Assembly (NCBI GenBank): GCA_048939995.1 | Contig: JBHLOY010000001.1 | Span: 64,001-128,000 of the forward strand | From: Promethearchaeota archaeon | GTDB lineage: Archaea; Asgardarchaeota; Lokiarchaeia; Sigyniarchaeales; SOKP01 | Direction: 5' to 3' | DNA length: 64,000 nucleotides | In this document: positions 41,655 to 51,246 of the stretch, one piece after another | Layout: the number at the start of each line of letters is the position of its first letter | Position numbering within the stretch: the first letter of the stretch is position 1 | Notes under the pieces: model-generated | Databases searched by the model: none | The model's input: only the letters and a program-made list of their open reading frames with translations | Told to the model about the DNA's origin: nothing | Translations under genes and position numbers: made by a program

Positions 41655-43679
41655 TTATTTCCTTAATTTTAAAAATCTGGCATTAATAGCAACAATCACC
41701 GTACTTAAAGACATAAGAATGGCTCCAATAGCAGGATTTATTAATATTCCAAGACTAAATAACACTCCTGCAGCTAGAGGAATCGTGAATACGTTATATC
41801 CCGTAGCCCAGATAAGGTTTTGAATCATTTTTTTATAGGTCGCTTTACCAAATCCTATTAAAGAAGTCACATCTTTTGGATTACTATTTACTAAGATTAT
41901 ATCAGCAGTTTCAGCAGCAACATCAGTACCAGATCCAATTGCAATTCCAACATCTGCTTGAGCTAATGCAGGAGCATCATTAATTCCATCACCAGTCATT
42001 GCTACAAATTCACCTTTAGATTGTAGCTCTTTAATTTTTTCTAACTTTTCATGAGGAAGCACTTCAGCATAATATCCATCAAGATTCAACTCCTCTGAGA
42101 CTGTTTTGGCAGTTTTTTCATTGTCTCCTGTTAACATCCAACATTTAATACCCATAGACTTTAATTTCTTAATAGCATCATGAGATTCTTCCCGGATTTG
42201 ATCTGAAAGACTAATAGCACCAATTAACTTATTCTCACCAAGGATTACAAATACAATAGTATCTATTGGACCCCGTCTCATATTTTCAGGGGTAGGAATA
42301 TTCAGTTCATTTAGATAGTTTGGACTAATAACGCTAACCATCTCTCCATTGACAATTCCTTCAACTCCCTTACCTTTAATAGCTTTAAATTCTGTGGGGG
42401 ATTCCAGAGAAAGATTCATGTTGTGTGCTTTTTCAACAATTCCTTTAGCAATTGGATGTTCAGAATTTTGTTCTAACGAAGCAACTATTTGAATAATGTT
42501 CTGTTCGTTATAATTATGATTAAAAGATTGTACAACATTTACACCGAAAGTTCCTTTTGTCAATGTTCCAGTTTTATCAAATACTATAGTGGAAATTTTT
42601 CTAGATGCTTCAAAAGATGTACGATTTCGAATCAATAATCCACTTTTTGCGGAAAGGGAAGTAGAAATTGCAACAACTAATGGAATCGCTAACCCAAGTG
42701 CGTGTGGACAAGTAATAACCATCACAGTAGCCATTCTCTCTATTGAAAAATTAAAAGATTCTCCCAATAACAACCATGTTAGTAATGTAGTAAATCCAAC
42801 AGTCAATGCTATAACAGTGAGCAAAAAGGCAGCTTTATCAGCAAGTCTTTGGGTATTTGATTTAGAGGCCTGTGCGTTTCTCACTAAGTTAATAACTTTT
42901 GATAAATATGAATCTTCTCCTGTACTTTCTACTTGAATCTCAAGAGACCCATCTCCATTAACAGAACCACCAATCACCTTGTCTCCGCTTTCTTTTTCAA
43001 CAGGTACTGATTCTCCTGTTAACATAGACTCATCAATATAGCTCGAACCATTCAGAATTAAGCCATCAGATGGTATTTTCTCACCAGGTCTTATCAAAAC
43101 CTTATCTTGTATTCTTAATTTACTAATCTCAACATCCACAATCTCTCCATCTCTCATTAAATGGGCTGTTGATGGCATTAGTTCCACTAACTTCTCCAAT
43201 GCTCTAGAAGCTCCTAAAACTGATTTCATTTCAATCCAATGCCCTAAAAGCATAATATCTATCAATGTTGCTAATTCCCAGAAAAATGGAGTTCCTTCTA
43301 ATCCTAAAATTGTTGCAGCACTATAAATGTATGCAACAGAAATAGCCACGGCAATCAAAGTCATCATTCCAGGAGCTTTTTTCCTTAATTCATCTATAAT
43401 TCCTTTAAGGAATGGCCATCCACCATAAAAGAAAATGAAAGAAGCCATAATCAGAAGAATATAATCTAAACCAAGAAAGCTAAAACTAAATCCTAGCCAA
43501 CCCTGTATTGTGGGAGATAATATAAGAATGGGAACAGTGACGATTAAAGAAACATAGAATCTTCGTCGAAACTCTTTTATCATCATTCTATGATGAGCGG
43601 ATTGATCTTTATGGCTTTTATGTTCTGTCTTATTCGATACGTGAGTATTATGAGAATGCATTCGATGATTATTTTTCAA
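41655..43679 (-). CDS. copB: Copper-exporting P1B-3 ATPase (CopB type)
   Basis: His-rich N-terminus, TGES, CPHALG, DKTGT, SEHP, GDGIND, YN, MSLST. Confidence 0.93.
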
Positions 43680-43759
43680 TTCTTTTATTAATATACCTTT
43701 TTTAATATTTTAAAAATATTTTATTTATATTTTAGAATTAATTAGATTGAAAAATAGTT

Positions 43760-44725
43760 TTAATCTAATCCTATTTGTTCAATTACATTTCTCAGCTTTT
43801 GAGCAGAATTTTTTAAATAATATTCTTCCTCCGAATTTAGATCAAGTTTTAGTACACTTGATACACCTAATTTATTTAAAATCGCAGGTAAACCTAAATA
43901 AACATTGTTTATTCCCAAATAATCTCTTACTAGGGATGAAACAGGTAAAATCGTATTCTCATCATGTAGAATTGCTTGTGTTATTTGGGCAAGAGCTAAA
44001 CCAATTCCATATGATGTCTCACCTTTCCGTTCAATAATCTTATTTGCTGATGTTTTTACTTCTACAAATATCTGATTCAATTCTTTTTCATTATCGCAGA
44101 ATTTCTGTTTATTACAGTTTAAGCAGTAATCTTTAATTAATATACCTGCAAACATAGCACTACTCCAAACTGCTAATTCAGTATCTCCATGCTCTCCGAT
44201 AATGTAAGCATGAATATTTTGAGGATTTATATTACACTTCATTCCTAAAAGGTATCTAAACCTAGCTGTGTCTAATACAGTACCAGATCCAAAAACTTCA
44301 TTTTCAGACTTTTCTGAAAATTTATAAGTTGCATACGATAATATATCAACGGGATTTGAGACAATTAAAAATTTTGCAGAGGGAGTTATATACATTATCT
44401 CTGGAATAATCTTTTCATATAATTTTATATTATCCTTAATCAAATCAATTCTTGTCTCGTTAGGGCGCTGATTTCTTCCAGCAGTTATTACTACTAGGTC
44501 TGAATTCTCAATATCAGAATAATCACCAGCCTCAATTTTTACTGGTAATACATAAGGACCTGTATGGGATAAGTCCATTACTTCACCTTCTACCCGTTTT
44601 TTATCAATATCGACCATCACAATATGACGTACTAATCCTTTAATTATTAAAGCGTAAGCAAATCGAGTACCAACATTCCCGCATCCAATAATAGATATTT
44701 TTGGTTTCAGATTAATCATTTTCAA
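43760..44725 (-). CDS. ldh: L-lactate dehydrogenase
   Basis: GCGNVG; AGRNQRPNETR with Gln at the specificity site (LDH rather than MDH); NPVD, LDTARF, GEHGD, KG.TSYGIG. Confidence 0.88.
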   Translation of the reverse strand: MKMINLKPKISIIGCGNVGTRFAYALIIKGLVRHIVMVDIDKKRVEGEVMDLSHTGPYVLPVKIEAGDYSDIENSDLVVITAGRNQRPNETRIDLIKDNIKLYEKIIPEIMYITPSAKFLIVSNPVDILSYATYKFSEKSENEVFGSGTVLDTARFRYLLGMKCNINPQNIHAYIIGEHGDTELAVWSSAMFAGILIKDYCLNCNKQKFCDNEKELNQIFVEVKTSANKIIERKGETSYGIGLALAQITQAILHDENTILPVSSLVRDYLGINNVYLGLPAILNKLGVSSVLKLDLNSEEEYYLKNSAQKLRNVIEQIGLD

Positions 44726-44885
44726 TACCCCTTTATATTTCTTTTATAATTATTTTATTTTTAAAAGTATGTCTAGTTATTTTATGAAATCCAATTTGAT
44801 TTTTTATATTCAAGTTCTTGATATATTCATAATTTTAAACCCTTTATGTTATATTTCAAAAAAGTTATTAATGAAAAGAAATACA

Positions 44886-44911
44886 TTTAAATATATATGA
44901 TGCAATATATA
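44886..44911 (+). promoter_or_regulatory. Candidate copper-regulon promoter/operator, copy 1
   Basis: TTTAAATATATA-TGATGCAA-TATATA upstream of the His/Met peptide. Confidence 0.6.
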
Positions 44912-44968
44912 CTTAAAGGTATATACCCTCAAAAAAAAGAAAAATTAAATAAAAAAAGAGGAAGAATT

Positions 44969-45079
44969 ATGAATAAGAATGAAGAAAAAGAGCAAGAAGA
45001 TAAAGAAAAAATGGAACATATGCATGAGCATAAAGATAAAAAAGAAATGGAAAATATGCACAAACATCATGATATGTAA
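44969..45079 (+). CDS. 36-aa His/Met-rich peptide
   Basis: MNKNEEKEQEDKEKMEHMHEHKDKKEMENMHKHHDM; AGAGGA SD; internal 12-aa duplication; the ORF-track start at 44897 falls inside the operator. Confidence 0.55.
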   Translation: MNKNEEKEQEDKEKMEHMHEHKDKKEMENMHKHHDM

Positions 45080-45286
45080 TCCCATGAAGATAATGAGTTA
45101 AAAAGTTAATCTAAAAATTTTATTTTTTTTGAACTTTACTTCGGCTTAAATAATCAATTGGTTTTAAAATATTCTCCAAAGTTGATTAGAATGTACTTAT
45201 TCTAACCTTTTTCTTCGAGTTAAAAACACAATTTATGAAAAATCGTTAAATTTAGTTTAACATAAAAAAAAAAGTATTCGTAATAG

Positions 45287-45613
45287 TTATATAGTGCTTC
45301 CACAGAAGGGACAATACTTTGATGTCTCACTATCTACTTTTTCTCCGCAATTTGGGCAGAACTGCGTAGTACTATATGAATTTTCTACATCATTTTTAAC
45401 TGAAGTATTTTTTTGATAATCCTGATCGGCTATTTTAGAATTTTTATCAATATTTTCTTCGCTATGATTTCGAGATAGAAAATACAATAGAATTAAAACC
45501 ACAAAAAGAAAGAGAAGCCCTCCTAAAAGTAAATATATCCATCCATTTGGACCCAAATCCATCATATGATTCATATAATCATAACCATTATCCAAAATTA
45601 TTAACTCACCCAA
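45287..45613 (-). CDS. Small membrane protein: extracellular HMM motif, 1 TM, C-terminal zinc ribbon
   Basis: MNHMMD, TM, FCPNCG..KYCPFCG. Confidence 0.75.
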   Translation of the reverse strand: MGELIILDNGYDYMNHMMDLGPNGWIYLLLGGLLFLFVVLILLYFLSRNHSEENIDKNSKIADQDYQKNTSVKNDVENSYSTTQFCPNCGEKVDSETSKYCPFCGSTI

Positions 45614-45627
45614 TAATTATGTAAAGT

Positions 45628-45912
45628 CTATTCCCTTTTAGCTATTTCACTTGATTGCCTTTGATTGTAATTTCCTCTGATAATTAGATAAAGAACTAGA
45701 CCAAAAATATTAAAAATCAAAGCAATTATTAACCATACCTCAGAATTAATGATTCCCCTTCTTACAGCATCCCTGTGAACGTAATAGGCAATAATGACGC
45801 TAGTTATTATATAAAGACTCATTCCAAATATCATTATTAGCCATGAAAATGGACCAAATTTAGCAAACCACCAATCCATCATGTGCAAATCTCCATACGT
45901 ATTGAAATACAA
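45628..45912 (-). CDS. Small membrane protein (PLDc_N-like) with HMMDWW motif
   Basis: HMMDWW; YVHRDAVRRG..W....IFGLVLYLIIR; GAGGT SD. Confidence 0.75.
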   Translation of the reverse strand: MYFNTYGDLHMMDWWFAKFGPFSWLIMIFGMSLYIITSVIIAYYVHRDAVRRGIINSEVWLIIALIFNIFGLVLYLIIRGNYNQRQSSEIAKRE

Positions 45913-45955
45913 TTTAAGACCTCTTGTTTGACTTTTTATTGTAATATAATCTTAG

Positions 45956-45988
45956 GATATATATGTAATAGTATATATTTAAAAGTTG
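45956..45988 (-). promoter_or_regulatory. Candidate copper-regulon promoter/operator, copy 2
   Basis: GATATATATGTAATAGTATATATTTAAAAGTTG; 29/33 identical to 50678-50710. Confidence 0.75.
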
Positions 45989-46071
45989 GTATTATTAAAT
46001 ATTATGATTATCAAGTATCATGATCTAAAAATTTGGCAAATATTTCTGTCTTTAAAACAGGTAGGAAATCA

Positions 46072-46695
46072 TCATTTGGTGCCAGTAGCTATATAGTAGG
46101 AAGTTAACAATCCGGATATTTCTACTTTTGTTACATTCTTTAAGTATTGCCTCATTTTCTTCCAAGTTTCACGGGTTACGTCTTGATATGTGATTCTGAA
46201 TAGTAATTTATATATGGGATTTAAAATTACACCCTTATTCCCAGTAATGAGCTGAAAATCTAAAACAACATATTTTCCACCTTCTTTTAAGAATTCAATA
46301 GAGTTTTTCAACGAGATATCATAATCTTGAATAGATACCATCGCCCAAGTACAAAGAATAGCGTCTACTTTCTCATTCAGCTTAAAGTTTGAAGCATCCT
46401 TTTTAAGAAGACTTATGTTCTGCCATCCAAATTTGATCAGCCTATCTTCAGCTTTTTTTAACATTTCTGGAGAGTAATCCAAAGCTAAGATTTTCCCTTC
46501 CTTTCCTATTTTTCTTTCAAGATATTCAAAATTAAGACCTGTTCCACAAGCGAGATCTAGAACAGTTTCACCTTTGTTAAGTTCTAATTTCTCAACAGCT
46601 TGTTCACGAAACATTGCATCATAGCCTACTACTGAAAGTAAAATATCCCATATTTTTGCCCATCTATCCCAAATCTTGAGGTAATTATTTGTCAT
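46072..46695 (-). CDS. UbiE-like class I SAM methyltransferase
   Basis: VLDLACGTG, LDYSPEML, DA, LKEGG..LDF. Confidence 0.88.
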   Translation of the reverse strand: MTNNYLKIWDRWAKIWDILLSVVGYDAMFREQAVEKLELNKGETVLDLACGTGLNFEYLERKIGKEGKILALDYSPEMLKKAEDRLIKFGWQNISLLKKDASNFKLNEKVDAILCTWAMVSIQDYDISLKNSIEFLKEGGKYVVLDFQLITGNKGVILNPIYKLLFRITYQDVTRETWKKMRQYLKNVTKVEISGLLTSYYIATGTK

Positions 46696-46739
46696 TAAGC
46701 ATTCTGGATATAAAATATTTAATTATACTTTTTTAAAAT

Positions 46740-47297
46740 TCAAATAAAACGTCTAACTTCTCTACAATATATATCATATTCCTCTTTAAATTGCTCTTTT
46801 AACCATGGCTCTTCTGTAAAAGGAGTAAGGAAATTCCACAATATTCCTAAAATACCTGTTATCAAAGTAAAAAAAGAATTGGCAAGAATTATCAATCCGG
46901 CATATAATATTATATCAGCTAAATATTGGGGATTTCTTGAATATTTGTAAGGACCATCTTTGATTAATTTCCCTTTTAATCCAAGAGTTGAGTGAACACT
47001 TAAAGTTCTCACACCCCAGATAAGAATAAATAATCCAATTACGATTAATGATATTCCTATTGGGTAGCGAAACCAGTGTATAAAAATGAAATTTTTCCAG
47101 TCTAAAACGCTCAATATGATTGTTCCTACGAATGAGATGATTGTGACAACCCAACTGATCCAAAATTGCCATGATTTTTTACTGGGTGGAGGCCAAATTC
47201 TATATTTTGGCATGATTAATGTAAATATCAACCCTCCCACAAGCAATATGCTTGCAGTAAGAGTTATTATAAATATAATTATCGTTATAATTCCCAT
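46740..47297 (-). CDS. ICMT/PEMT-family membrane methyltransferase
   Basis: L...GPY.YSRNPQY; EE..L...F.EEY..Y...V.RF. Confidence 0.88.
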   Translation of the reverse strand: MGIITIIIFIITLTASILLVGGLIFTLIMPKYRIWPPPSKKSWQFWISWVVTIISFVGTIILSVLDWKNFIFIHWFRYPIGISLIVIGLFILIWGVRTLSVHSTLGLKGKLIKDGPYKYSRNPQYLADIILYAGLIILANSFFTLITGILGILWNFLTPFTEEPWLKEQFKEEYDIYCREVRRFI

Positions 47298-47302
47298 TAT
47301 TG

Positions 47303-47647
47303 TTATTCCCTCCTATTCTGAACGCTTTTTTTTCTGCACTCCCTCTTCATATCCTTTTCACTTAATAATCCATTATTCTCTAAGGGGATATTGAGTTCAA
47401 TTTCAGAACTTCTTATTTTTCTCATGAGTTGTCTAAGACCATAATCATTAAATATCAATTCTAGAAAATTCTGATATAGCATCTTAAGATTATCCATACA
47501 TAATTTAATAAACAGATCATTTTCTTTAGAATCCATAATATTTAGAATTGCTTGAAGCCCTTTTATGGCATCCTTAATATTTTCAAAGTTATTAATTACT
47601 TTTTCAGTCGATTCCATTGAAAATTTTGTAATTATAATAATTTTCAC
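47303..47647 (-). CDS. Hypothetical helical protein in the copA operon
   Basis: Overlaps the upstream gene (GTGA); start uncertain. Confidence 0.6.
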   Translation of the reverse strand: MKIIIITKFSMESTEKVINNFENIKDAIKGLQAILNIMDSKENDLFIKLCMDNLKMLYQNFLELIFNDYGLRQLMRKIRSSEIELNIPLENNGLLSEKDMKRECRKKSVQNRRE

Positions 47648-47892
47648 ACCCCATCTAGTTTAGATTGATTGGAATTGACCAATTTAGCTATTTTGGTTTC
47701 ATAGATTGAAAGACATCTGTAGCAACAGAAATATGAAATTTTTCCATATTTATCTCTATATCTTGGTGCCGATAGATAAGCTGGAATTCCCATACCACAT
47801 AATGTACAAGATTCATGTATATCTGCATCAGATCTTATAACTTTTCTACAAATGGGACATAATTTTTCTTTCAAAAATACAACACCTTTCAA
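47644..47892 (-). CDS. TRASH/YHS-like metal-binding protein (candidate Cu chaperone) with an extra CxxC-H
   Basis: CPIC..H..CTLCGM..YFCCYRC; true start probably TTG 47874. Confidence 0.75.
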   Translation of the reverse strand: MKGVVFLKEKLCPICRKVIRSDADIHESCTLCGMGIPAYLSAPRYRDKYGKISYFCCYRCLSIYETKIAKLVNSNQSKLDGV

Positions 47893-47931
47893 GCATTTTA
47901 ACTTAAAAAATTAAAAAAAATATTTTTATTA

Positions 47932-48099
47932 TTAAATAATACTCATTTGGTGACCACAGTGCTCAGGGATGGGTTTAGTTCCACAGTGAGATCCCATCCA
48001 ACAAATCAATTTATCGCCTTCTTTATGCATAACTACACCACAATGTTGTGGTATATCCATTTCATAACCACACATAGAACATTTTAACTTTTCCATCAT
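47932..48099 (-). CDS. Unannotated 55-aa Cys/His/Met-rich metalloprotein
   Basis: MMEKLKCSMCGYEMDIPQHCGVVMHKEGDKLICWMGSHCGTKPIPEHCGHQMSII*; AGAGGTG SD; 21 bp downstream of copA. Confidence 0.85.
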   Translation of the reverse strand: MMEKLKCSMCGYEMDIPQHCGVVMHKEGDKLICWMGSHCGTKPIPEHCGHQMSII

Positions 48100-48120
48100 A
48101 ATACACCTCTTTTTTTAATT

Positions 48121-50622
48121 TTAATTACTATAATTTGGAAGTATTTTTGACCTGCGAAGGAGATTTGCATTAGATACTACCGTTATCGAACTTGTAGCCA
48201 TAGCTATTTCCGCAATCAGTGGATGAGCTAATCCTAGCATGGCAGCTGGTAATGCTATTAAATTATAAAAGAATGCCCAAAACAAATTTTGTTTGATTTT
48301 CTTAAAAGTATTTTTTGATAATTTTATTGCTGAAATGACTCCAGATAAGTTTCCACTAACTAATGTAATATCTGCTGATTCAATAGCGATATCTGTTCCA
48401 GTGCCAATTGCTATTCCTACATTAGCAGCCGTTAAAGCAGGAGCATCATTAATTCCATCACCTACCATAGCTACTTGTTTTCCACTCTCTTGTAATCTTA
48501 GAATCTCATTTACTTTTTCATCTGGTAACACCTCCGCTATAACTTGTGAAATACCTATTTTTTTTGCAATTGCTTCTGCTGTACGTTCATTATCTCCTGT
48601 TAACATGACGGTTTGTATTCCAAAATCTTCCAATTCTTTAATAGCAGGTATTGAGTCCTCTTTGATTGTGTCTGCTATTGCTAAAATTCCAGCTAATTCA
48701 TTATTAACTGAAACTAAGATCACCGTCTTAGCCTCGCTTTCTAAGGTTTCAATTTTATGATTATAACTTTTATAGTCAATATCATTCTCAATCATCAATT
48801 TCTTACTGCCTATAAGAATTGATTTTTCAGCACTTAAGGCAATTTTTGCTTGAACACCCTTGCCTGTCAAGGATTCAAAATTACTAATATTGAATAAATC
48901 AAAATTATAATCCTTTGATTTCCTCAAAATAGCATCTGCTAATGGATGTTCAGATCCAGCCTCGACGCTTGCAGCATATTTCAGCACCATTTCAGTTGAG
49001 AAATTCTCTGTTGTAATTATGTCAGTCACTTCAGGTGTTCCTTTTGTAATAGTTCCGGTTTTATCAAATACAATAGTGTTTATTCCTCGTAAAGTTTGGA
49101 TAGCCTCACCATGTCGAATGAGAATTCCATGTTCCGCACCCATCCCACTCCCAACCATTAATGCTGTGGGAGTTGCTAATCCAAGAGCGCAAGGGCATGC
49201 TATAATAAGTGTAGCTATTAAAGTTAAAAACGCAAGAGTTATAATGTTTAGACTAGGATCCACCCAAGGTATAAATTGTTGTACCGCAGCTAAAATTGAC
49301 GTTAAAGGCAAAAATATCCAAATTATGAATGCGACTACAGCAAGAAGCAAAACCACTGGCACAAAATAACTTGTAATTCTGTCTGCAAATTTCTGTATAG
49401 GAATTTTTGATCCTTGAGTTTCTTCCACCAATTTAATAACTTGAGACAAAAATGTATCTTCACCGACTTTAGTGGCCTTCACTTTCAGTAATCCTCTTTG
49501 ATTAATTGTAGCTCCAATTACTTCATCTCCAACTTTCTTCTTAACAGGCATCGACTCTCCAGTCGCCATTGATTCGTCTATAGCACTTTGGCCCTCAATA
49601 ATGATTCCATCTGTAGGTATTTTTTCTCCTGGTTTTACAATCATAATATCATTTTCTTTTAGCTGTTCAATTGGTATCTCAACTTCTTTTCCATCTACTA
49701 AAATAAAGGCACTTTTTGCTCCAAGCTCTAGTAATTTACGAATTGCTTGGGAAGCCCTTCCTTTAGCTTTAGTTTCAATATATCTTCCTGTTAGATGAAA
49801 AGTCATTATCATTGCAGCTACTCCTGAGTAGTTGAAAAGAGGTGAAATATAGGATAAAGGACCGGTTATAAATGCCGAAATTGTTCCAAGAGCAATTAAT
49901 ACATCCATATTTGCATTAAGATGACGCACAGCTTTAAAAGCTGAGATGTAAGTACTGTATCCCACTATAAATAGGGGAAATAAGGATAACAGGATTATTC
50001 CGAAATTATATATGAATTCATCTGGCCAATAAATCCCTCCAATCATTTCTACAAGCATCCAACCAATTATAGGTACTGTAAAAATCCAAGAAATTAACAT
50101 TCTTCTTTTAGCAATTCTATATTTTTTCTCTTCTTGTTCTATCTCACGATCATATTTTGACTTTCCTGAAACTTTTTCTTCAATATCCAAAGCACGGTAT
50201 CCTGTATTATTTATTATTGCAAGCATATCATCATATCCCAATTCATCTGTATCATATACAATCGTGGCTTTTTCTGTCGCTATATTTACAGTTGCACTTA
50301 TTATACCTTCACTTTTCTTAAGTGCCGATTCTACAGTTTGAGCGCAAGATGCACATGTCATACCTTCAATTTTTACGACAATTTTAGTTGAATTTGGTAT
50401 CGCTCCATAACCAGTGTTATTCACAATTTCTATAATTTCTGATTTTTTTATTATCTTAGGATCGTAGGTGAAATAGGCTTTTTCAGAGGCTAAATTAACA
50501 TTTGCATCTCTAATTCCTTCATGCTTGCTAAGTGCTTTTTCGATAGTCTGAGCACATGATGCGCAATGCATTCCTTGTATGTTTAGAAAGGTTACTTTTC
50601 CTTCTTCAACTTTTTCTACCAT
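48121..50622 (-). CDS. copA: Cu(I)-exporting P1B-1 ATPase with two HMA domains
   Basis: GMHCASC, GMTCASC, TGES, CPCALG, DKTGT, SEHP, GDGIND, YN, MATSS. Confidence 0.95.
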
Positions 50623-50677
50623 TTTTTCTTCCTTTGTCCATTAATTTTTAATTAAATTTTAAAAAATATTATTCTGA

Positions 50678-50710
50678 GATATATATGGAGGAGTATATAT
50701 TTAAATGTTG
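50678..50710 (-). promoter_or_regulatory. Candidate copper-regulon promoter/operator, copy 3 (copA promoter)
   Basis: GATATATATGGAGGAGTATATATTTAAATGTTG, between copA and the divergent regulator. Confidence 0.75.
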
Positions 50711-50808
50711 CTATTTGAAAATATATATTTATAAATTATAACAACAATTATTAATACAATGAATTTCTATTATTAAACCAAGAAATACGAAATTAAGGAG
50801 TTTTTTAA

Positions 50809-51246
50809 TTGAGTGATACTATAAAAATTCAAAATCTCACAAAATTTTATACCATAACGTTATTAAAGTCAAAAAAATCGGTTAGTGGGTACTATATTTT
50901 AAAACAACTCAAGTCGGATTTAGGGATAACTGCAAGTCCAACATATATATACAACTTCTTGAATAAGCTTCAAAAAGAAGGATATATTGAACCCACCCCA
51001 AATCCCAAATCAAAAAAGTCGAAAGGATTTCAATTAACTTCATTAGGGAATGAATTTACTGAGCATATTTTTCAACGTTTTAGTAATTTAATAGAAGCTG
51101 CTATAGAATCAAAATTGGAAGTTTGTGCAAGCTGTGGAGTAAAATTGTATAATGATTTTCATACTGAAAAAATTGGAGCAAAAGAGATGAAATTTTGTTG
51201 TATACACTGCGCAAAAGCATATAAAAATTCTCATCAAAAGAAATAA
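50809..51246 (+). CDS. PadR-like wHTH regulator with C-terminal TRASH domain (CopT/CopR analogue)
   Basis: SGY.I...L....SPTYIY.FL..L...GYI...F.LT..G; CASCG..FCCIHCA; divergent from copA. Confidence 0.88.
   Translation: MSDTIKIQNLTKFYTITLLKSKKSVSGYYILKQLKSDLGITASPTYIYNFLNKLQKEGYIEPTPNPKSKKSKGFQLTSLGNEFTEHIFQRFSNLIEAAIESKLEVCASCGVKLYNDFHTEKIGAKEMKFCCIHCAKAYKNSHQKK

Follow-up and report, generated by a model that had tools for sequence, protein, structure and literature searches.

PadR-family proteins such as LmrR are typically repressors that are released by a ligand, and in archaea binding sites that overlap the TATA box or lie downstream of it are typical of repressors that block the recruitment of TATA-binding protein (TBP) and transcription factor B (TFB) or of RNA polymerase. 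In the described archaeal copper regulators of the CopR/CopT type (P. furiosus PF0739, T. onnurineus CopR, S. solfataricus CopR/CopT and Halobacterium VNG1179C), a DNA-binding protein carries a C-terminal TRASH domain, its gene is divergent from an adjacent copA, and the copper regulon is small and has one common motif. All of these features are shared by the locus considered here, which lies in a stretch of 64,000 nucleotides (the window) from the genome of an uncultured Asgard archaeon and in which the copper-export genes appear to stand behind one short, TATA-fused palindromic switch. Its reader is very probably the protein encoded next to it, which joins a PadR domain to a TRASH tail. From the sequence evidence presented below we give a probability of roughly 0.7 to the reading that this 20-bp palindrome is the operator of the PadR-TRASH protein, occupied by a copper-free dimer that would repress three promoters and be released by Cu(I). 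Our literature search found no paper that joins PadR with TRASH or deals with copper regulation in Asgard archaea, and none on the function of the Ta0938 and HVO_1752 C-terminal TRASH families, whose models match the tail in most members of the regulator family.

The putative operator and its conservation

The motif TTTAAATATATA-N8-TATATA (26 nt), from which the initial annotation proposed a copper regulon, occurs as three exact copies in the genome scanned (3,754,348 bp, 30.5% GC, 38 contigs, with the window at C11:64001-128000). All three lie within a 6-kb locus, at 44886-44911 on the plus strand and at 45958-45983 and 50680-50705 on the minus strand, so that both the positions and orientations first given and the impression that other promoters lack the motif hold genome-wide; three of about 2,900 promoters carry it. 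With up to two mismatches the window contains five matches, against a mean of 0.18 in shuffles of the window. The core TATATA-N8-TATATA is found at six places genome-wide, four of them in the copper locus, and when the spacing was varied as a control (TATATA-Nk-TATATA, k = 0-20) each spacing gave 2-13 matches in the genome, k = 8 alone falling in the copper locus with four of its seven matches. The 12-mer formed by the TATA box and the first hexamer occurs 22 times by itself, and the specific feature is therefore the second hexamer at a fixed distance.

The refined operator is the 20-bp palindrome TATATAY-N6-RTATATA fused to a TTTAAA TATA box, with five exact copies in the genome, four in the copper locus and one on contig C17. 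Its symmetry differs from that first described for TATATA-N8-TATATA: the dyad of the hexamers is trivial because TATATA is its own reverse complement, and a true inverted symmetry is instead given by the inner flanks, which among 60 unique sites are C in 40 and T in 20 at position +7 and G in 41 and A in 19 at position -7, that is, C/G in two thirds of the sites. The outer flank is T in 51 of the 60. The picture of three single sites is likewise right for sites 2 and 3 and has to be changed for site 1, where two copies (44892-44911 and 44906-44925) stand in tandem, in a 14-bp register, and have the middle hexamer in common. The promoter elements and the regulator gene are as follows, in window coordinates.

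44886-44925, no strand assigned: tandem double operator, site 1 (44892-44911 and 44906-44925), with TTTAAATA on the plus side and the TATA-like TTTAAGTA on the minus side
45958-45983, minus strand: membrane-pair promoter, TTTAAATA fused to the operator TATATACTATTACATATATA
50680-50705, minus strand: copA promoter, TATA box TTTAAATA (50705-50698) overlapping the operator TATATACTCCTCCATATATA (50699-50680)
50722-50735, plus strand: probable regulator promoter, a TATATA hexamer 42 bp (3 x 14) from the operator start, then TTTATAAA
50809-51246, plus strand: PadR-TRASH regulator, 145 residues, divergent from copA (Pfam PadR, AlphaFold2 model, Foldseek, Cys/His pattern)

We searched the genomes of 40 relatives, which together with the genome itself make 41 for the co-occurrence of motif and regulator, and scanned a wider collection that yielded 52 Asgard loci with a regulator orthologue of at least 56% identity (L- and G-numbers denote individual loci and genomes of relatives). 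Close orthologues of the regulator (59-70% identical) are present in 10 of the 40 relatives, with two more at 37-40%, and every close orthologue has the exact core motif within about 110 bp of its gene. All 11 genomes that encode a close orthologue have the TATA-fused motif, as do 2 of the 30 that lack one; the reversed control pattern has one match in the 41 genomes. In the two exceptions (G006 and G022) the motif stands before membrane-protein homologues at the end of a contig, with the regulator expected just beyond. Whole-genome counts of the core in five relatives are 1-7 per genome, about the same as for the reversed control pattern, and the locations are those of the regulator locus.

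Among the 52 loci, 45 have the exact core 50-122 bp upstream of the regulator, and TTTAA is present on the regulator side in 42 of these 45. Four of the seven loci without an exact upstream copy have a copy with one mismatch at the same place, and the remaining three (L079, L098 and L099) have exact copies elsewhere in the locus. The conserved unit, read away from the regulator, is TTTAAATATATAY-N6-RTATATA, in which the six spacer bases vary freely. The conservation for which the initial annotation had proposed a check is present: across about 50 Asgard genomes the motif recurs beside regulator orthologues and upstream of copA and of the genes for membrane proteins with an HMMD motif, while the spacer diverges. 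All of the computable checks proposed there turned out in favour of the initial reading. The conservation bears on the idea that one promoter cassette was recently duplicated to give three copies with no separate operator function, which would account for the flanking bases shared by copies 2 and 3 (29 of 33, as counted in the initial annotation). Duplication is very improbable in our judgement, given that the spacer and flanks diverge while the half-sites are exact across about 50 genomes and that the motif precedes non-homologous genes and two different CopA lineages; selection on the half-sites alone therefore argues against it.

PadR-TRASH proteins with 32-41% identity are also encoded next to copA in Thorarchaeota, in Heimdall- and Hermod-labelled bins, in DPANN archaea and in Hadarchaeota, and there the palindrome is shifted. 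ATATATC-N6/7-GATATAT (with at most one mismatch) lies within 300 bp upstream of the distant regulator in 16 of 23 loci, and in the thorarchaeal loci the stretch between the regulator and copA contains three overlapping ATATATC-N6-GATATAT operators spaced by exactly 14 bp (for example L103-L105, 4449-4496 and equivalents), the same register as that of site 1 in the window. The recognition helix of the protein differs by clade in step with the operator (SPTYIYNF versus SAGTLYPF and similar), and the TRASH cysteines are invariant.

The motif might be a real copper-specific promoter element that is read by another factor, or directly by TBP and TFB as a TATA-rich promoter class of its own, with the PadR-TRASH protein a mere neighbour, and the TATA-like nature of the hexamers and the self-complementarity of TATATA speak for this. 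However, no other regulator is consistently adjacent in the related loci, the presence of the motif tracks that of the regulator, the inner C/G flanks provide a true inverted symmetry that the hexamers by themselves would not, and the motif is confined to three promoters of the genome. Moreover, the shifted palindrome accompanies a diverged regulator in Thorarchaeota at 41-46% GC, a combination for which there is hardly an explanation other than that this protein recognises the palindrome. A different reader seems to us quite improbable, and the PadR-TRASH protein remains the probable one.

The probable regulator and the proposed direction of control

The regulator scores 33.3 bits with Pfam PadR (PF03551), for which the cut-off is 27 (E = 4.9e-8), and all 31 members of the regulator family match this profile. 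In the AlphaFold2 model (predicted local distance difference test score 87.6) three helices (10-21, 27-38 and 44-56) and a wing formed by strands 60-63 and 73-76 are followed by a long helix (78-101) and then by a small beta-rich domain with a final helix. The top Foldseek matches in the PDB are LmrR and the B. subtilis PadR-DNA structure (5x11), with a probability of 1.0 and a target TM-score of 0.65-0.76. The model thus has the winged helix of the PadR-s2 (LmrR-like) subfamily followed by a TRASH tail, and its long C-terminal helix would serve in dimerisation. The cysteines of the tail, C106-x2-C109-x20-C130-x3-C134, fit the TRASH signature C-x2-C-x19-22-C-x3-C and are kept without exception by 31 close and 13 distant homologues. 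C131 and H133 are invariant too. Among the 31 family members, 30 match PF24273 (TRASH_HVO_1752_C) and PF11494 (Ta0938) with E ≤ 0.01 (best values 1.5e-5 and 3.8e-6, respectively) and four match PF08394, and the PDB entry 2fqh (Ta0938) matches the Cys-rich tail with E = 0.0025. The profile match, the Foldseek matches to LmrR and PadR and the TRASH-type cysteine cluster together support the first description of the protein as PadR-like with TRASH.

The closest homologues of the regulator are 81-82% identical and are labelled MAG: Promethearchaeota archaeon, and the only database names for such proteins are 'PadR family' and 'TA0938 family'. No Lrp/AsnC domain was found in the regulator by Pfam, other profile or Foldseek searches. 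As to a rival sensor, the CsoR model matched nothing in the genome and PF24273 nothing else, the CopY, ArsR and MerR families not having been searched. Elsewhere in the genome PF08394 (Arc_trans_TRASH) has only two weak matches (E = 8.7e-5 and 0.006), both in a 1004-residue open reading frame on another contig (C7:44573-44860) that has no operator nearby.

With TTTAAATA taken as the TATA box, its first T lies 83, 71 and 84 nt from the start codon at the three sites, and the operator ends 58, 46 and 59 nt from it (45 nt for the end of the tandem), in agreement with the 45-60 bp of the initial annotation. Its proposal that one half of the operator overlaps the TATA box also stands, the overlap being with the 3' half of TTTAAATA. 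If the usual archaeal TATA-to-start distance of about 25 nt is assumed, the operator would overlap the 3' half of the TATA box and then span to the expected transcription start, ending at about -5. On the other side, a hexamer at +40/+42 from the operator has at most one mismatch to TATATA in 76-80% of 46 loci, and this regulator-side hexamer with TTTATAAA stands about 75-85 nt before the start codon of the regulator. We considered here a second, weaker operator facing the regulator and set it aside, as the in-phase hexamer at +42 can most simply be read as the TATA box of the regulator gene itself.

Based on these data we propose the following mechanism. The copper-free regulator dimer would sit on the operator and block the recruitment of TBP and TFB or of RNA polymerase at three promoters, namely that of copA and the 55-residue gene behind it (probably together with downstream genes), that of the pair of HMMD membrane proteins, and that of the His/Met peptide with its two phased operators. 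The four-cysteine TRASH tail, which directly follows the dimerisation helix, would bind Cu(I) and probably also Ag(I), and metal binding would lower the affinity for DNA so that the genes become derepressed. What the sequence data show is how specific and conserved the motif is, that it co-occurs with the regulator and which domains the regulator contains. Promoter occlusion that is relieved by copper is what we infer from the position of the operator, and we likewise infer that the protein binds DNA, which sign its control has and which metal it senses; it is the operator position together with the habit of the PadR family that leads us to favour an apo-repressor released by Cu(I).

Several points weigh against this mechanism. 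The regulator itself reaches only 20.8 bits against the cut-off of 27 for the TRASH model PF24273. The TATA-to-start distances of 71-84 nt exceed the genomic mode of about 55-60 nt; in a positional k-mer profile upstream of 2,888 crude open reading frames only two signals stand out, a broad one of TATA type between -60 and -50 and that of the Shine-Dalgarno sequence between -20 and -10. The TATA box is assigned by consensus only, and the tRNA genes (nine found) are too few to calibrate the distance from TATA box to transcription start. The related genomes are kin, and counts across them overstate independence. Finally, the TRASH regulators of P. furiosus and S. solfataricus are copper-dependent activators of copA (PMC7830388), which supports an arrangement of the same protein and the same site with the opposite sign: PadR-TRASH would stay bound and activate transcription when it carries copper, either as MerR/CueR do through promoter remodelling or in the manner of P. 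furiosus CopR, and the phased tandem operators could support higher-order assemblies. Against such activation, the operator lies on and downstream of the TATA box and not upstream of the TFB recognition element (BRE) as for CopR, and the characterised members of the PadR family such as LmrR are ligand-released repressors. Activation is in our view unlikely, and repression relieved by copper remains the reading that we prefer.

Genes of the locus and the putative regulon

The genes of the locus, from copB to copA, are listed below.

41655-43679, minus strand: copB, P1B-3-type ATPase with a His-rich N-terminus and CPH and MSxST signatures; a member of the island, operator not directly upstream
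43760-44725, minus strand: L-lactate dehydrogenase gene (ldh), between the tandem operator and copB; TIGR01771 with 365.8 bits against a cut-off of 303.55
44970-45079, plus strand: His/Met-rich peptide, 36 residues, with repeats MEHMHEH and MENMHKHHDM; homologous micro-open reading frames in L048 and L051
45287-45613, minus strand: zinc-ribbon membrane protein (ZnRib), 108 residues, with an N-terminal HMMD motif, one transmembrane (TM) segment and a C-terminal zinc ribbon
45628-45912, minus strand: two-TM protein (memb), 94 residues, with an N-terminal HMMDWW motif; Asgard-only unnamed family
46072-46695, minus strand: UbiE-type S-adenosylmethionine methyltransferase (Pfam match)
46740-47297, minus strand: PEMT/ICMT-like membrane methyltransferase (Pfam PEMT, E = 2.7e-16)
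47303-47647, minus strand: 114-residue protein, with a 4-nt overlap with the 82-residue gene
47644-47892, minus strand: 82-residue CxxC...FCCxxC protein, TRASH-like, possible metallochaperone; weak profile match to the TRASH tail of the regulator (E = 0.002)
47932-48099, minus strand: 55-residue Cys/His/Met miniprotein, 21 bp after copA; conserved copA partner
48121-50622, minus strand: copA, P1B-1 Cu(I)-type ATPase with two HMA domains, CPC, YN and MxxSS; operator directly upstream

Of the 62 TATA-fused instances of the motif, 24 are followed first by a ZnRib homologue and 12 by a memb homologue (36 for the two together), while copA comes first in 7 and a His/Met micro-open reading frame in 3. 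In most relatives ZnRib is the gene that stands first, and the instances that begin with it usually continue with copA and the 55-residue gene. The copA product of the window has the N-terminal HMA motif GMxCxxC, CPC in TM4, YN in TM5 and MxxSS in TM6, which define it as P1B-1, and the six operator-linked ATPases of relatives, like that of the window, all carry CPC, YN, MxxSS and HMA, the Cu(I) signature. These ATPases belong to two lineages about 40% identical to each other, and from their sequences two Cu(I)-ATPase lineages appear to have been swapped under one switch. The window CopA shares 60-83% identity with its counterparts in L049-L051, L098 and G032, but only about 40% with the CopA that the same-genus loci L037-L045 have behind the same operator.

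Versions of the His/Met peptide with 40 and 44 residues (KKMEHMHE repeats) are encoded in L048 and L051 behind the same tandem operator, which is itself present in L048/G042 and L051/G041; judged by these comparisons, the peptide is a real, conserved gene. Both families of membrane proteins keep the N-terminal HMMD(W), and the N-terminal part of ZnRib is paralogous to the two-TM protein. In the region 45882-45912, public gene calls start the two-TM protein at ATG ATG (84 residues) and so lose the conserved His of HMMDWW; translation from a TTG that has the Shine-Dalgarno sequence GAGGT 6 nt before it yields the 94-residue protein listed here. The 55-residue gene comes after copA in almost every related locus, and tandem arrays of two or three copies are frequent (for example L059, L064 and L074); its product matches no Pfam family, falls into Asgard-only clusters and has a weak desulforedoxin-like lead (0.82). 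In L079 an operator of its own precedes the 82-residue gene, whereas in L050 and L098 this gene comes after copA; in L050 the 114-residue and PEMT/ICMT-like genes come next, in the same order as here. Profile searches found no family for the 114-residue protein, and the UbiE-type methyltransferase has no operator linkage among the loci of relatives.

In the 39-bp gap after the 55-residue gene (47893-47931) there are runs of T8 and T6, which may form a partial terminator inside the putative copA operon. We regard five genes as secure members of the regulon, namely copA, the 55-residue gene, the membrane pair and the His/Met peptide. The 82- and 114-residue genes are probable members by read-through, the two methyltransferases are uncertain, and ldh and copB are doubtful because they have no operator of their own. 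The regulon of about 9-11 genes that was proposed initially is hence an upper estimate, of which the five secure genes stand and four or five more depend on read-through past the T-runs.

Genes of the copB type have an operator in some genomes, such as L079, though copB in the window has none directly upstream. We considered that transcription of ldh and copB starts at the TATA-like TTTAAGTA of the tandem operator, on its minus side, an arrangement with a parallel in G042. The leader would then be about 190 nt long and ldh has a TATA-like box closer by, so that we think such transcription possible but less likely than not. Only a 3' relic of ldh (about 18-55 codons) is present at the same place in the closest relatives (L048:2460-2520 and L132:3682-3846), and ldh was therefore lost there by deletion.

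A genome scan with one mismatch for further members of the regulon gave matches that are mostly intragenic or lack the TTTAAA fusion, none of them convincing. The exact extended core at C17:107217 lies in a TA run before a 273-residue open reading frame, whose product was not identified by any of the searches run, and we judged it to be a chance match. In L130 (G012:C64) a TATA-fused operator (21-45) precedes a gene (92-892) for a 266-residue secreted or membrane-anchored protein with no obvious copper link, which may be either a lineage-specific member of the regulon or a chance match.

Comparison with known systems

The locus offers a probable regulator together with its exact 20-bp site and a well-delimited set of targets, all of which can be tested with recombinant protein alone. 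Several unannotated Asgard-only small proteins gain a copper context from it. What the window contributes is the clade-specific, TATA-fused form TATATAY-N6-RTATATA, the tandem operator before the His/Met peptide and the census across genomes. We lean, by a small margin only, towards the wider view that archaea at large (Asgard, DPANN, Hadarchaeota and others) have in the PadR-TRASH proteins a second class of copper sensor, that their TA-alternating palindromes, stacked on the core promoter with a 14-bp step, are the first decipherable transcription-factor code of Asgard archaea, and that the regulon would reveal new components of copper handling in the extracytoplasmic HMMD membrane proteins, the His/Met micropeptides and the 55-residue Cys/His protein.

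Like the PadR repressors of B. subtilis (PadR) and L. lactis (LmrR), the regulator is predicted to combine a winged helix-turn-helix domain with a C-terminal dimerisation helix. The canonical PadR operator is ATGT-N8-10-ACAT (PMC3506622), and between ATGT-N8-ACAT and the TATA-N8-TATA found here the inner span of 16 bp is the same while the bases differ. The effectors of PadR and LmrR are phenolic acids or drugs in the dimer interface, whereas here a 40-residue TRASH cysteine cluster is appended, and unlike in those proteins the half-sites are TATATAY and the transcription machinery is the archaeal one of TBP and TFB. In its proposed logic the system resembles CopY and CsoR, where an apo-repressor sits on a palindrome of the cop promoter and is released by Cu(I) bound to cysteines; their folds are unrelated to that of the regulator, being a BlaI-like winged helix with a CxCxxxxCxC tail and a four-helix bundle, respectively. 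In 30 of 31 family members the Cys-rich tail matches the models of Ta0938 (PDB 2FQH) and of the HVO_1752 C-terminal TRASH family (PF11494 and PF24273), which are structural or database families without an assigned regulatory role.

The comparison with CopR/CopT is that of a shared sensor on different scaffolds. CopR/CopT proteins have an Lrp/AsnC-type DNA-binding domain and form an octamer, whereas the protein described here has the PadR-s2 fold; their motif TTNNCAWWWTGNNAA lies upstream of the BRE and copA is activated under copper, whereas here a TA-alternating palindrome lies on and after the TATA box and repression is likely (PMC7830388). The regulator is thus not a member of CopR/CopT but probably does the same job, a TRASH sensor having been recruited to a different DNA-binding scaffold, probably with a regulatory logic opposite to that of CopR.

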